Source of the DNA: Nitrospirota bacterium
GTDB lineage: Bacteria; Nitrospirota; UBA9217
Assembly: GCA_963741205.1 (NCBI GenBank)
Contig: CAVUHW010000009.1
Location: forward strand, 1 to 33,925
Direction: 5' to 3'
Length of the DNA stretch: 33,925 bases
Both the position numbers and the translations under genes were made by a program. The notes under the pieces are model-generated. The model did not search any database. It was not told the origin of the DNA and saw only the letters and a list, made by a program, of their open reading frames with translations. Of this stretch, positions 4,662 to 15,085 are shown piece by piece (the stretch's first letter is position 1; the number at the start of each line of letters is the position of its first letter).

Positions 4662-4751
4662 GTTTTGGCCGTGACACCGGGTGAGGGTATTAAAGTGCCT
4701 CTGGTTTCCGGAGGTTCAAGAAAACGCTTTGCCTATTGTTGTGGGATTAAC

Positions 4752-4810
4752 AAATTCGACAGGAAACGTATAAATTCGATAAATCTAAACGATTGCGACG
4801 TTCAGGATGC
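4752..4810 (+). repeat. 46-bp-unit repeat family copy
   Basis: aaattcgacaggaa (core 4755) and TTCAGGATGC (4801), spacing 46. Confidence 0.55.
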
Positions 4811-4856
4811 TAAATTCGCTGAATATTACGATCGCAAATATGGTTCTCTCAAACCG

Positions 4857-4894
4857 AAAAGAGCCTTCCAACCCGAGGTCAGAAGGCCCTTTTA
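4857..4894. terminator. probable bidirectional intrinsic terminator
   Basis: aaaagagccttc...gaaggccctttt hairpin between convergent sigma factor and HU genes. Confidence 0.65.
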
Positions 4895-6569: not shown

Positions 6570-6604
6570 TTTCAGCGGTGGATTATTTGTGAGGTGCGTT
6601 AATT

Positions 6605-6646
6605 AATTCGAGATGAAGTGCGCAGATCCACGATTTGCATTTGACG
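6605..6646 (+). repeat. 45-bp-unit repeat family copy, left part (interrupted by the intron; continues at 7311)
   Basis: joining 6605-6646 to 7311-7325 restores a close homologue of 9828-9884. Confidence 0.85.
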
Positions 6647-7310
6647 ATCGCGGTAGGGATGCCCGTTACCGGCACCCCCGCACAGAACCGTGCGAGAAGG
6701 GTTACTTCACACGGCACCTACCTTGGGTAAATGACGCAAGACCGCTTGCAGACTACGACCTCACGTATCCTGTCAAGTCCGTTCAATTGCTTTCCCCGTC
6801 TCTGTGTACAGGTCGCAGACGACTTTCCAGAATTCCCCTTGGTCATCAGCCTTCCCTCCGGAACCTCCGCAACGAGTGAGGACACCTCGTATTGTTCGGC
6901 CCCTTCTTCGGTACTACGCCGATGTCAGACTGCTCGGCAGCGTGCATGTAAGGATTACGGCCACTGGCCTTCCCTTACCGTCCCGCCGATATTCCGGTCG
7001 GGAACTGCTGAGCTCTCCCGGTTCTCGAGCATAGAGTGTCCACGCATGCACAGGGTCTTCGACTCCGCGGGGCCGAACAGCAACTTGCTGTTAGCGCGCT
7101 GTTCGTGGTGCCTTCCCGATAGTTCAACTCGGTCGGCGCCCCGGACTCCAGATTTCGGAGCTCAATGGCTGGCCTACGTTTCCCCTGTCAACGCTTCACG
7201 TGCGGTCTCACGATCGCCCGCGCATGACTCGGGGCCATGATGGATCAGCTCGTCCTTTCATGTAGGGGACTTGCACCCCCTGCTCTATGCCGGTTTATCC
7301 CGGCGCTTTC
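6647..7310 (-). mobile_element. ORF-less group II intron (class E-like)
   Basis: minus strand: 5' GAAAGCGCCGGGATAAACCGGC...GGGGGTGCAAGTCCCCT; domain V GTGCCGTGTGAAGTAACCCTTCTCGCACGGTTC; domain VI ending CCCTACCGCGAT; EBS1 UGAACU (7121-7126) complementary to exon end AGUUCA. Confidence 0.92.
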
Positions 7311-7525
7311 TGAACTTCAGGATGATCTTCACACGGAACGTTTCGTTCGGAAGTTTTTATCCTTCAGCGTAAGTGCCCTTCTCGATGAACACCTACAACT
7401 GTTTTATCTCAATCGTACGCAACAGTCATCATGGCGGAGTGTAGGGTGCATATGAACGCACAACTGACTCATCGGTCGGGTTAATCAGCCCGACGGCGCC
7501 GAACTATTGGTTTGGATTGTCTATA

Positions 7526-8080: not shown

Positions 8081-9649
8081 TTACCGATATTTTGGATCTT
8101 TGCAATTGTTGCTTTCACTGAAGACCGAGCACACTACTTCCTCACCCCATATTTTTTTGCCTGCACGCTTTGGGTTTTCTAAGAAAGCCTGATTACGCTC
8201 GGTGAAATACCTATCTATTGCGAACTTGCACTCATCAACAGATTGATAGTCACTGTTGTGAATGACTGCCTTGGCCATGCCACTAAAAACGGATTCGATC
8301 ACATTTAAAAATTGCGCGCTCGAAGGAAGCGGGGCAAGTTCCACAAGTGGGGTATGATTTCTGTCTCTATATGTAGGTTCATTTACCTCTGTGACTTTTT
8401 CATAGAGTTTTTTGGAAGCGTGCCAAGAGGCCGCATCCCAGGAAAAATAAATTCGTTCTTCATCCGTGTATTTGGAAAGGAGAATTTCCAGTAATCTTAT
8501 CATTTCGGCGGTATTCTTTTTGCCGGAATAAAAGTGAGTAACTTGATTTGTGGTTAATTCTAATGCTGCAGTGCAGATAAGGCTGCCTTTACTCTTTTGC
8601 AATTGGGGTATTGTTCGCGTTTGATCTTTCGGGAAAAAAGCCCGCCCACCACGGATTCTAATTGCGACAGGACCAAACTCGTCGATGGAGAAGAACTTTT
8701 CGTTTTGTTTAAGACTGGAAAGAATATTGGTAATCTTTTTCAGCTTGGTACGATATTCTGGATCGGGACTTGTCAGAACCGTTCTTGCTTTCTTGAATGC
8801 ATAACCTTCTGAACGAACATATTCAGATATCATGGTTTTGCAAATTGTCTCACTATAAATATTTGAATATGCTTGTACTAACGTTTTTAAGCTCCAAGAG
8901 GTTCGATTGATATTATGGAGTGAAGGCGCTTCATGTATTAACTTGATTATTCGGTCCTTTTTGAGCTTAATGTTGTTAACTACCTGTTCTGGACTCTTTC
9001 TTGTCCTATGCAAGTCGAGATGCTCTAATCCTTTGTCTATAAAAACTGCATACCACTTTTTAATGGTCTTGCACGACCTTTCTATTTTCCTGCTTATTTT
9101 GGTTATCTGGCCTCATTTAAGCAAATCTAACAGGGCTACGGCTCGTTCCCATTTGCTCCGACTGTTCGAGGACCTCCATGCTCTCAGAGTTTTTTCAGTA
9201 TCCTTGGACACGTCTTTAATTTGCCATTTGTTGAATTTGACCTTAGCAAATCCATTCTTCCTGCGCCAGTTATGATAGAGAGAGACAAAATGTGAATATT
9301 TGAACCCCAAAGGCTCACTTTGATGATACTCATGCCAAAGAGTTATCAGGTTTGTATTTTCGTTTTCGAGGCGTTGATGGAATTGAAAAAGGCGATCAAT
9401 TAAACGGGCTTGTCTGACATTTTCGCAAATATTCTTCTGCGGCTTCAAGGAAGCCGCAACAATATTTGCAGACTGATTAACAATGTCAGTGTGAACAAGG
9501 TCGGAACTGTTGTACATTTTAATGTACGAGCGGACAGTAGATCGCGCGATTTTAAATGATCGTGCTATGGATGTAACACCAGCACCTTGAATAGCATGCT
9601 GGATTATCATACCTTTTATTTTCCCTGGGCTGATGCTTTTTTGAGTCAT
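8081..9649 (-). pseudogene. IS630-family DDE transposase with IstA(IS21)-like N-terminus; one in-frame TGA
   Basis: FSIDEFGP, WDAASWH, AQFLNVIESVF; ORFs 9113-9649 and 8081-9013 are in the same frame, separated only by TGA at 9113-9115. Confidence 0.85.
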
Positions 9650-9827
9650 GGCATGAATCCCGATAAGTTTAAAAAGTTAAGCAATGATTAGGCCATGTCG
9701 GTTTCAATATTTATGACGAATATATTACTGATTCATGGCGATGTCAATGATAACGATTGAGCTAGTCAACAATGGGGTTATCGAAAAGGACTGTCGATAT
9801 CGAAAAGGACAACGATGAGGTTTGTCA

Positions 9828-9885
9828 AATTCGGGATGAAGTGCGCAGATCTGCGATTAGCAATTGGCGTGAACTACAGGATGGA
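9828..9885 (+). repeat. 45-bp-unit repeat family, intact unoccupied copy
   Basis: TTCGGGATGAAGT-N30-ACTACAGGATGGA; cores at 9830 and 9875. Confidence 0.85.
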
Positions 9886-9930
9886 GGGCTCGATGAAAGT
9901 TACAAATGGCAATTGTGATTCTTCTGCGCC

Positions 9931-9994
9931 CTCATGGTCATTGACAACATCTTCGAGTCTGCACTACCAATATTGAGACAAGGGCATAGAATAC
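9931..9994 (+). repeat. second repeat subfamily (caatattgWgacaaggg)
   Basis: aligns with 20094-20127 and 29444-29492. Confidence 0.75.
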
Positions 9995-10860: not shown

Positions 10861-11190
10861 TTATCACTTTTTTTCTAGGCTGTCTGCCCTTTTAATATAT
10901 TCATCGGAATTTAGAGGGTCAGGTCCTTTGTATTGGCCTCTGGATTTCTAAGCGCCCTCGTTAGTGATATATGCCAATACTCGTTCAACGCGTGTCTGCG
11001 GATTGCCTGAAACCTCCAGCACATCCACCTCTTAAGCTATTATAGCAACTTTAAAAGATGCGCCTTTGTCCTAGCGACCAGTTTATGATAAAAAGTATTT
11101 AAGAGAATACAGTGACGGCATGCATATGGGGGAGGAATTCGCCGTCTGCAGGGGAAAAGGTGAACGCCACAAGGATAGTCTAGGATATCA

Positions 11191-11247
11191 GATTCGAGGT
11201 GAAGTTGATAGTTTAAGCATCATTGCTGAGCGAGAACTTCAGGATGC
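11191..11247 (+). repeat. 45-bp-unit repeat family copy
   Basis: TTCGAGGTGAAGT-N30-ACTTCAGGATG; cores at 11193 and 11238. Confidence 0.8.
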
Positions 11248-11388
11248 AGGCTTGAAATAATACTTCAACTGGAAAGCGTCACGTCGGTCACGGGCATCTG
11301 ACATAATTTTTCTCGGTCCTTGCTTGTATTTCCATTTGTACGGGGTAAACTGATAGTAACTCAAGCATTTCACCTAAGGAGGTACCAC

Positions 11389-13099: not shown

Positions 13100-13175
13100 A
13101 TTTTCGGGGTATCTGATTATCGAATACAAGGTGAAAACTGCAATTTCAGAAAGTTACAACTGTCAACGACTTCAG
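13100..13175 (+). repeat. 46-bp-unit repeat copy interrupted by IS110 (continues at 14791)
   Basis: near-identical to 843-918; the expected continuation GATGA resumes at 14791. Confidence 0.85.
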
Positions 13176-13255
13176 ACCTTATGATTAAAATGGCAAGTCT
13201 GACTTAAGGTATATTTTCGTTAGGAAGACCAAAATACACCGAAAGGAGACTTGCC

Positions 13256-14326
13256 ATGATTAACATTAGCAAACTCGATTTCAGCGGTCAACATATTTAT
13301 GTCGGTTTGGACGTTCATAAGAAAAGTTGGAGTGTATGCATCTTGACTCAACAGTTTGAACATAAGACCTTCACGCAGCCACCAGATCCATCGGTCCTGG
13401 CCAACTACCTGAATCGGAACTTCCCTGGTGCAACCTATCACGCCGTTTATGAAGCCGGCTATTCCGGATTCTGGATCCACGACCAGTTAAGAGAAAAAGG
13501 CATCGACTGCATAGTGGTAAATCCTGCTGACATTCCGACAACAGACAAGGAACGGGCAGGCAAAACCGATAAGGTAGATTGCCGCAAACTTGCCCGATGC
13601 CATAGAAACGGAGAGCTCGTAGGAATCTATGTTCCCACGCGGATAAAGGTCGAAGATCGCAGCTTGATTAGAACCCGACGAAACATGGTCAAGAAGCAGA
13701 CCCGGTGCAAGAACCAGATCAAGTCCATGCTCGCTTTTTATGGCATTCATCTACCCACTGACATTGTTACCCGTAACTGGTCAAGCAAGTTCATTAAATG
13801 GCTTGAAGCGATTCGCATGGAAAAGGCTAGCGGCAATGTCTCCTTTATGGTGCATCTCCAAGAGTTACACCATATCCGGGGAATCGTCGTCGAATTGAAT
13901 CGGAACATTCGCGTCCTCTCTCGGTCAGATGAATATAAAGTTAATGTGAAATTATTAAAAACCGTATCGGGGATCAGCACACTCACCGCTATGACATTTC
14001 TCACGGAGCTGTGTAATATCGATCGGTTTGGATCACTCGACAAACTTGCGAGCTATGTCGGTCTCATTCCCAATACGGACTCCAGCGGAGAAAAGGACAT
14101 AACAACAGGCATTACCAACCGACGCAACCAATCACTTCGGCATTTGATTATTGAAAGCTCGTGGATTGCTACACGGAAAGACCCGGCATTACTTATGGCC
14201 TTTGAACGCCTCTCTAAAAACATGCCAAGAACAAGGGCCATCGTTCATATCGCCAGAAAACTATTGAATCGAATCAGATACGTCCTGAAGAATCAGAAGG
14301 AGTATGTGCCTGCGGTTATACAATAA
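13256..14326 (+). CDS. IS110 family transposase/recombinase
   Basis: YVGLDVHK, YEAG, KTDKVD (DEDD set), YVGLIP...SSG, ARKL. Confidence 0.96.
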   Translation: MINISKLDFSGQHIYVGLDVHKKSWSVCILTQQFEHKTFTQPPDPSVLANYLNRNFPGATYHAVYEAGYSGFWIHDQLREKGIDCIVVNPADIPTTDKERAGKTDKVDCRKLARCHRNGELVGIYVPTRIKVEDRSLIRTRRNMVKKQTRCKNQIKSMLAFYGIHLPTDIVTRNWSSKFIKWLEAIRMEKASGNVSFMVHLQELHHIRGIVVELNRNIRVLSRSDEYKVNVKLLKTVSGISTLTAMTFLTELCNIDRFGSLDKLASYVGLIPNTDSSGEKDITTGITNRRNQSLRHLIIESSWIATRKDPALLMAFERLSKNMPRTRAIVHIARKLLNRIRYVLKNQKEYVPAVIQ

Positions 14327-14329
14327 GAA

Positions 14330-14640
14330 ACGGGATCACGTTAGAGCGGTCGATCTTAGAACCTGATTCATCGTGGGTACCGCTTTGTTCCATCCTGCAG
14401 CCGGCTCATGAAGCGTGTCTGCACTACTACAGACTGCGGACCCACAACTTTAAAATATGATCAAGGAAATGCAGCTGCCTTTAATGATGTAGGCATGTCT
14501 GCTAATAAAAGCGTGGTTTTAAAGATTTGTCCGTTCTGCGAACAAATCCCGAGAAAGGATCCTACGGGGGGTATCAGGATATGGACTGCCCCGGGAAAAT
14601 CGATCCTGGGGCATTTGTGAGAACCGATTTCTGCCCCAAC
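14330..14640 (+). ncRNA. candidate bridge/seek RNA
   Basis: non-coding right end with stacked hairpins; internal loop carries TCCATCCT (14389-14396) and ACTACAG (14426-14432), matching both strands of the target motif; transcript limits are a guess. Confidence 0.65.
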
Positions 14641-15085
14641 AAAGAAAATTCTCACAAACGATCAATGCAGGGGGGGAATCCTCCGACTGGTACACTTTCA
14701 ATGACCATTAACGAAAACAAATAGCAAACAGGGAAAAACCTATCGGCCAGCCTGTTTAGTCTGAGCCAGGCTTGACTTTTAACATAAAAGGATGAAAACG
14801 AGGATTGTTTATACTTTTTAATATTGCGGAATTGTGGTTGGATTCTACACGTCTCAATTTTTGCAATTGTCGCAGACAACAGGAAGGTTGTTGATGTGAA
14901 ATGCCTCTCAGATGTAGTACACTTTTCAAGACCGGAGGCGTTCATTTTCTCATGACCGGGGAATGATGGAATGAAAGAAATCCTCGTTTTGGTTCCAATG
15001 ACCTTCGGGTGACTGGACCCGAAGGGGTGGACATTCCGAATGACTGACTTCGGATTATTCGATTAATTTTCGTTTAATGGTGTGC

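Follow-up and report, generated by a model that had tools for sequence, protein, structure and literature searches.

A probable target-reading guide RNA in an IS1111-type element and the repeat family it occupies in a Nitrospirota genome

The stretch of DNA analysed here (33,925 nt, contig CAVUHW010000009.1 of assembly GCA_963741205.1, hereafter the window) belongs to a Nitrospirota genome of 4.27 Mb in 50 contigs, 84% complete, and its positions 13176-14790 are an element of the IS110 family with an IS1111-type layout. A hairpin 3′ of the transposase gene of this element is, with high probability, the target-reading loop of an IS110/IS1111-type guide RNA and spells an unoccupied member of the repeat family colonised by the element. 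Such RNAs were named bridge RNA by Durrant et al. (2024; PMC11208160) and seekRNA by Siddiquee et al. (2024; PMC11187229). The element is a member of the mechanism described in that year and leaves the knowledge of the mechanism itself unchanged; its interest lies in a loop read from raw sequence that correctly predicted where the element can land. The element and its main parts are the following:

13176..14790, + strand: IS110-family (IS1111-type) insertion sequence of 1615 bp, its ends taken from the alignment of copies and from the junctions
13179..13204, + strand: left subterminal inverted repeat, holding TATGAT, candidate -10 box of a junction promoter
13256..14326, + strand: transposase/recombinase gene (356 aa), recognised by Pfam, NCBIfam and motif
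14764..14787, + strand: right subterminal inverted repeat, holding TTGACT, candidate -35 box

Copies of the element in the genome start to resemble each other at 13169 and stop at 14794-14797, and contigs of four soil-metagenome runs that carry relatives diverge from the window at 13169-13173 and 14794-14795, entering flanks that resemble further repeat copies. The left junction is ..ACTTC-AG/ACCTTATG.. and the right one ..CATAAA-AG/GATGAA.. (in sites, a slash marks the junction or insertion point), and the element was therefore placed at 13176-14790 with an AG at both junctions, the choice of which AG to count as element being arbitrary. Since empty sites (..CAG/GATG..) hold a single AG, there is no target duplication, and since occupied sites hold AG at both junctions, one of the two belongs to the element. 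The short left end, with 80 nt of non-coding sequence 5′ of the gene, and the non-coding region of 464 nt 3′ of it constitute the IS1111-type layout. The inverted repeat is 26 nt long, imperfect, with two gaps, and begins 3 nt from either end; when the left end was aligned locally to the reverse-complemented right end, 1/2000 shuffles reached its score. The IS1111 criterion asks for terminal extensions of 7 (or 6) bp to the left and 3 bp to the right of the inverted repeats, and the extensions measured here were 3/3, 5/1 or 7/3, depending on the AG assignment and the repeat start chosen. If joined, the two ends would give TTGACT-17 nt-TATGAT and, judging from these hexamers, would form a junction promoter, of a kind described for IS1111/IS110 elements.

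A part of the long non-coding region, ~195 nt at 14530-14725, is absent from shorter homologues, whose right end lies ~270 nt after the gene as compared to 467 nt in the window element. A G+C-rich piece of ~60-70 nt within this part recurs in other contexts, at C14:39531-39601 in the genome and on metagenome contigs, and the contigs of metagenome run X4 break at 14566 and 14622, which suggests a small nested repeat. In one soil-metagenome run, a single contig joint skips 13527-13736.

The transposase matches DEDD_Tnp_IS110 (PF01548, E 1.2e-15, residues 16-162) and Transposase_20 (PF02371, E 6.9e-17, residues 232-311) in Pfam and reaches 208 bits, against a cut-off of 140, with the NCBIfam model NF033542, 'IS110 family RNA-guided transposase', so that the family named in a first reading of the bare letters (the sequence-only reading) was the right one. 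Its 356-aa reading frame is intact and contains GLIPNTDSSG, fitting GL-P----S(T)G, the C-terminal motif of IS1111 transposases (PMC11187229). By sequence the protein is distant from characterised members of the family: the transposases of solved structure, IS621 and ISCro4, are matched weakly (E ~3e-6) and in the C-terminal domain only (residues 213-345 for IS621, E 3.8e-6), identity to IS4321/IS5075 is 22-24% over residues 16-308 (82% of the length), and identity to any plasmid-borne relative does not exceed 37%. By its architecture the element is a putative member of the IS1111 clade. It adds a divergent lineage to the RNA-guided recombinases, one in which the RNA is compact and has two loops, the core is AG and the 13-nt target can be read. 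The portion of the RNA that concerns the target comprises:

14373..14445, + strand: target-binding module of the bridge/seek RNA (RNAalifold consensus, pair counts, covariance model)
14389..14396, + strand: right target guide UCCAUC with the core complement CU, complementary to the top strand of AG-GATGGA
14426..14432, + strand: left target guide ACUAC with the core AG; the copy on contig C41 has ACUUCAG here and sits in ACTTCAG/GATGGA

The target module consists of an outer stem (GUGGGU.CCG.C with G.CGG.ACCCAC), an internal loop and an inner stem-loop (GCAGCC..GUCUGC). When 14370-14530 is folded alone it forms two hairpins (minimum free energy -48.1 kcal/mol, z -2.51) and UCCAUCC faces CUACU in one internal loop; this single-sequence fold has an extra UUUGU/ACAGA helix, which is absent from the RNAalifold consensus of 21 homologues, where both guide segments are wholly unpaired and lie in one loop. 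The sequence-only reading had drawn the stems ccgc (14380-14383) with gcgg (14436-14439) and gcag (14397-14400) with ctgc (14419-14422), enclosing a single loop with TCCATCCT (14389-14396) on one side and ACTACAG (14426-14432) on the other, and these coordinates are all correct, the two folds agreeing in setting the two sides against each other across one internal loop. The consensus of the 21 sequences contains two modules of stem, internal loop and stem, with 32 pairs, 14 of them showing compensatory change on both sides. Paired cells make up 97.1% of 664, a share that falls to 33.1-46.3% if partners are displaced by 1-3 columns, and shuffles reached the observed value in 0/500 cases on four of five measures and in 36/500 on the fifth.

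The homologues derive from a scan with one genome per species that returned 34 related loci with 51-91% protein identity, from metagenome-assembled genomes labelled Nitrospirota, Deltaproteobacteria, Syntrophaceae, Bacteroidota and others. They share, 3′ of the gene, the arrangement GTGGGYA.CG-(variable)-CTGCAGC..hairpin..GTCTGC-(variable)-AGACTGCG.ACCCAC, followed by a second module of like build, and in their alignment the sole variable blocks of the first module are the two strands of the internal loop. A covariance model made from this alignment (R1) scores 177.6 bits at the target module; in the genome it has exactly three matches, one in each full copy of the element and none elsewhere, and among 121 sampled genomes of the phylum it has matches in three, the window's own included.

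What the loop reads can be set against the sites present in the window:

9817..9954, + strand: uninterrupted copy of the target repeat, holding the empty site (nhmmer E 2.1e-34; alignment of 23 near-full copies)
9873..9885, + strand: unoccupied site, matching the guides at 13/13 positions
13169..13175, + strand: left half of the occupied target, ACTTC-AG
14791..14796, + strand: right half of the occupied target, GATGAA

Each internal loop of a bridge RNA reads both DNA strands around a core dinucleotide (PMC11208160). In the window element the two loop strands, UCCAUC-CU and ACUAC-AG, together specify ACTAC-AG-GATGGA: UCCAUCCUG is the complement of CAGGATGGA, ACUACAG is the top strand, and the two overlap at CAG. 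The predicted ACTACAGGATGGA is found once in the window, at 9873-9885, in the unoccupied repeat copy to which it had been assigned from the letters alone, and any match was found in 0/100 shuffles; in the whole genome it occurs twice, both times inside uninterrupted repeat copies. Mononucleotide shuffles of the element placed both guide segments within 60 nt in 0/20000 cases.

The other copies of the element point to the same target. Three full copies, in the window, on C41 (97% identical) and on C5 (94%), are 94-100% identical over ~1.63 kb, and partial copies occur on C36 and C4, with a further piece of 71 nt on C14. The three full copies and the two partial ones share a single insertion point within one repeat family, rather than being at unrelated sequences, and their aligned flanks (C41, C5, C36 on the left only, C4 on the right only, and the uninterrupted 9817-9954) read ..GCGTGAACTWCAG/GATGRAGG.CGMTGAA.GTT... 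The copy on C41 carries a one-base guide variant, and its guide pair, ACUUCAG and UCCAUC, matches its own site, ACTTCAG/GATGGA, at 13/13 positions; this 13-mer has three more occurrences in the genome, all in repeats. With respect to the guides of the window copy, the 34 empty repeat copies include two exact matches, six with one mismatch and seven with two.

Guides and flanks were then compared across homologues, with ends placed by conserved terminal motifs and loop strands read from alignment columns, for 31 insertions in 20 guide-pair groups. Six of the 34 loci were dropped from the guide-target count, because of a second copy of the RNA region at the right end (L024), a contig end (L025) or partial loci (L033, L036, L037 and L038); flanks were missing on the left for L023, L029, L026, L039 and L041 and on the right for L013. 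Guides matched their own sites with a mean of 4.71/7 on the left (16 groups) and 5.97/8 on the right (20 groups), as compared to 2.92 and 3.56 for the sites of other groups, and permutations reached the observed mean in 0/20000 cases on the left and right alike. The own site was strictly the best in 6/16 groups on the left and 9/20 on the right. For loci L017-21/31, ATTACGCA was predicted on the right and ATTACGCA, ATTACACA or ATTACTCA was found; for L023 the prediction was (G)AATGCGGC and the sequence found AATGCGGC, for L027 (G)ATTTTGGT and ATTTTGGT, and on the left side of L022 CCTCTCAC was predicted and CTTCTCAC found. In these comparisons the guides track the flanks of their own insertions. 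The check called for by the sequence-only reading, a fold across homologues together with guide-target covariation, yielded a conserved structure and guides that follow flanks, and its proposal that the element is programmed for the repeat family is supported by the covarying loop and by the position of all the genome copies in the same repeat. Neither of the two outcomes that would have refuted it, segments outside a common loop and copies at unrelated sites, was observed. The ~20 natural guide variants, each paired with its sites, could be used to work out the guide rules of the IS1111 branch, or could supply new orthologues of the recombinase.

Four of the homologous loci deserve a separate mention. 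In L024 the second copy of the guide-RNA region directly follows the right end of the element, from ~480 nt past the gene to the contig end. The doubling may have come from tandem insertion, from insertion into another copy, or from an artefact of the assembly. In L013 the element is interrupted just past the second RNA module, ~215 nt after the gene, by unrelated DNA in which a new frame begins, and no right end could be located inside the locus. L023 and L029 lie on the same contig and are identical over 170 nt or more upstream of the gene; the usual left-end motif is absent from both, and their left boundary is therefore not placeable.

The basis of the target reading is in silico and consists of the protein family, the covarying RNA structure, the covariation of guides with flanks, the insertion into one repeat and the exact empty site. 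Several observations, to which those on the donor loop considered below are to be added, weigh against it. The window copy differs from its own occupied site at 2/13 positions, ACTTC-AG/GATGAA instead of the 13-mer specified by the guides, a discrepancy already visible in the sequence-only reading, and the copy on C5, with the guide UGCAUC, is likewise mismatched to its own site at two positions. Mismatches are poorly tolerated by IS621 (PMC11208160), and the mismatched copies may therefore have inserted imperfectly, have been guided in trans by the RNA of another copy, or have drifted later. No sigma-70-like promoter was found directly upstream of the RNA. Among the homologues, the register of the right guide with respect to the inner stem shifts by one base among lineages, so that three registers (-1, 0 and +1) were scored for all pairs, which is a weakness of the covariation test; the matches on the left side are modest (~4-6/7), those on the right do not exceed 4/8 in 4/20 groups under two-register scoring (L015 4, L035 2, L040 3 and L041 3), and because the homologues are related the permutation figures overstate independence.

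The second half of the RNA is predicted to bind the ends of the element itself:

14448..14524, + strand: predicted donor-binding module, with outer stem CUUUA/UAAAG, internal loop and inner stem-loop GCAGCUGC..GGCAUGUCUGC (homologue consensus)
14459..14466, + strand: candidate guide for the element's left end ('right donor guide'), its GAUCA and AAGG being predicted to pair, as two separate stretches, with ACCTTATGATT
14505..14511, + strand: probable guide for the element's right end ('left donor guide'), AUAAA with the core AG, equal to the element's last 7 nt

The likeness of ATAAAAG at 14505-14511, in the second stem-loop, to the right end of the element had been seen in the letters alone and extends to the homologues, the loop 7-mer being equal to the right end in 16/18 groups (ATAAAAG in ten, ATAGAAG in six) and differing by one base or one deletion in the remaining two. 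The guide for the other end, which the sequence-only reading had left as unclear, has now a candidate, with a short match: in the second loop the 5′ strand has ..GAUCAAGG.., to be set against ACCTTATGATT at the element's left end, so that AAGG could pair with CCTT and (G)AUCA with TGAT(C/T), two bases being skipped. The left-end guide thus looks discontiguous from its sequence, as is also the case for the right donor guide of IS621 (PMC11208160). In L027, the most divergent element, the loop UACGAU is the exact complement of the left end ATCGTA, with two compensatory changes, and no compensation is seen in L022, with CCCT at its left end, or in L024 and L034, whose loops have AAGA. Since the ends hardly vary, donor covariation comes down to one A/G position and L027. 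Judged by these sequences, the reading of the donor guides is likely, but less secure than that of the target guides. The bases just 3′ of AG in each loop, inspected by eye for handshake-type pairing, gave a mixed pattern.

The same data bear on a narrower account, in which an RNA of ~80-100 nt would consist of the first module alone, the protein would read the ends through the subterminal inverted repeats, and the second stem-loop would be a structural, processing or termination signal. It would agree with the predominant RNAs of 82-96 nt with only two target matches described by Siddiquee et al. (PMC11187229), with the near invariance of the ends and the little donor covariation among homologues, with the shortness and discontiguity of the left-end match, and with the three uncompensated loci. 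It does not account as easily for a second module built like the first (GCAGC..GUCUGC inner stem and internal loop), for a 3′ loop strand that in 16/18 groups is identical to the 7 nt ending the element and follows their A/G difference, or for the two compensatory changes of L027, and IS1111 bridge RNAs do hold donor-binding nucleotides in the description of Durrant et al. (PMC11208160). We regard this account as unlikely, though deserving of consideration.

It could also be that RNA and guides are genuine in origin and the window copy is immobile, the match at 9873-9885 merely reflecting the consensus of the repeat. Such a relic is favoured by the mismatches of the copy to its own site, by C36 and C4, where copies are truncated or interrupted, and by the result that none of the contigs of the four soil-metagenome DNA runs carried a circle junction or an empty-site join at 13175/14791. 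The intact 356-aa frame, the high identity of the three full copies along their whole length and the integrity of RNA modules, ends and candidate junction-promoter hexamers weigh against it, and the single-base guide differences between copies, one of which fits its site exactly, argue for recent movement. An immobile relic is accordingly quite improbable. A third view, that the hairpins terminate the transposase transcript or bind a protein at its end and resemble the flanks by chance, can be given hardly any credence. In its favour, a match of 6-8 nt may arise by chance and no Rfam 15 family matches the guide-RNA region; against it, element shuffles never brought the two segments within 60 nt, and in an otherwise conserved structure only the loop strands vary, following the flanks in 20 guide groups.

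With the hairpin read as the target loop of a guide RNA, a course of transposition can be proposed. The element would be excised as a circle, whose joined ends would create the TTGACT-17-TATGAT promoter, directed towards the transposase gene with the RNA that follows it. From this transcript an RNA of ~150 nt (14373-14524) may be processed and bound by the recombinase, folding into the two like-built modules. The two target pairings would overlap at the AG core, the presumed point of strand exchange, while in the second module AUAAA-AG would pair with the right end and GAUCA/AAGG, discontiguously, with the left end. The DEDD/serine recombinase would then insert the circle between CAG and GAT of the ~130-nt repeat, without target duplication. 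We infer each of these events, from transcription and processing of the RNA to recombinase binding, circle formation and use of the junction promoter, and likewise the activity of the element at present.

The closest parallels are found among IS1111 elements. Their RNA is located in the right end, 3′ of the gene (PMC11208160), and the seekRNA co-purifies with the transposase, the complement of the top strand lying 5′ of the complement of the bottom strand and the two matches overlapping in the target, in an order that is the reverse of the IS110 type (PMC11187229). The window RNA shows this guide order and overlap, the reverse of IS621. IS1111 members with a 3′ seekRNA include ISEc11, ISPa11, which targets REP, and ISKpn4, ISPst6 and ISPa25, which target attC (PMC11187229). 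The window element has in common with these a DEDD transposase with GL-P----SG, subterminal inverted repeats, a long 3′ non-coding region, insertion without target duplication, the same two-guide order with overlap, and a repeated sequence as target. It differs from the characterised IS1111 elements in its distant protein and in an RNA that is predicted from sequence. Its inverted repeats are of 26 nt and imperfect, compared with 11-13 bp in IS1111 (PMC11187229), and its target repeat failed two attC hairpin tests and, unlike REP, is not palindromic. Donor nucleotides lie in a multi-loop in many IS1111 orthologues (PMC11208160), whereas the donor module of the window is a simple internal loop.

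Likeness to IS621 (PMC11208160; structures 8WT6 and others) consists of two modules, loops that read both strands, a 2-nt core contained in both pairings and, as putative traits of the window element, a discontiguous left-end guide and a junction promoter on the circle. The RNA is nonetheless 3′ and not 5′ of the gene, the order of the guide strands is reversed, the core is AG and not CT, and the window protein matches that of IS621 only over the C-terminal domain. ISPpu9 of Pseudomonas putida is likewise an IS110-family element in a genomic repeat, with the gene of the small RNA Ssr9 following that of the transposase (PMC12288879); orphan copies of the RNA gene are described elsewhere in the genome carrying ISPpu9 (PMC12288879), unlike the window RNA, which lies only inside the three full copies. 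A literature search on IS110 bridge RNA in Nitrospir- returned nothing relevant, and the predicted IS1111 lists of the two 2024 papers might include relatives.

The target of the element is an abundant and co-oriented repeat. A profile made from ten copies gave 55 hits in the genome for this ~130-nt sequence, mostly in co-oriented arrays on C5, C41, C45 and C9, and 34 of them are uninterrupted across the insertion point. In the window, copies are located at 4737-4880, 6593-7372, 9817-9954, 11177-11283 and ~860-990, besides the flanks of 13176-14790. Within the arrays, 1-4 kb separate one copy from the next, and the genes enclosed are unrelated (those for a sigma-70 factor, rhodanese, cytochrome c7-like protein, cytochrome P460, RibD_C and IS630-type transposase) and point in both orientations; the arrays look cassette-like. 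The repeat was found in 2/30 relatives, with one match each, by BLAST, which is insensitive for this purpose, and Rfam holds no family for it. A coding function was rejected, since across the 23 copies none of the three forward frames is free of stop codons.

Integron attC sites were considered in view of the co-oriented arrays, a left box beginning TAAC-AAATTCG, the known attC-targeting invaders and an integron integrase in the genome; group IIC introns, too, target attC. The candidate was not adopted. An attC site should fold, as a single strand, into an imperfect but conserved hairpin with R''/R' and L''/L' boxes. Two copies folded as single-stranded DNA, each in both senses, had z-scores from -0.03 to -1.28 and no significant hairpin, RNAalifold on the 23 repeat copies gave zero consensus pairs on either strand, and the genes lie in both orientations. 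The sole integron integrase gene of the genome (C18:131988-132923, - strand, locus L042; TIGR02249, 367.5 bits) lies on a contig from which repeat copies are absent, though a linkage may be hidden by the fragmentation of the assembly. On the upstream side of the integrase, short G+C-rich palindromic sites can be seen by eye after small genes, unlike the ~130-nt repeat.

Another copy of the target repeat is split by a group II intron devoid of an open reading frame (~664 nt, 6647-7310, - strand), the halves of the repeat being at 6593-6646 and 7311-7372. D1-D4 of the intron match RF02005 with 178 bits and D5-D6 match RF00029 with 32.5 bits, below the gathering score (E 2.6e-4), and no reverse-transcriptase frame was found inside 6647-7310. 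The intron lies on the opposite strand, 10 nt upstream of the insertion point of the element in the repeat. It is conceivable, if rather doubtful, that the ~130-nt repeats form an undescribed cassette-like array, non-integron by the fold tests, of which two unrelated invaders, an RNA-guided insertion sequence and a group II intron lacking an open reading frame, share a 10-nt stretch, and that the guide differences between copies reflect a natural reprogramming in progress that follows the variants of the repeat.

One further mobile element is placed between two repeat copies of the window:

8081-9649, - strand: split IS630-type transposase, with DDE_3 in 8081-9013 and helix-turn-helix domains in 9113-9649

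Its two parts may be the product of a frameshift.

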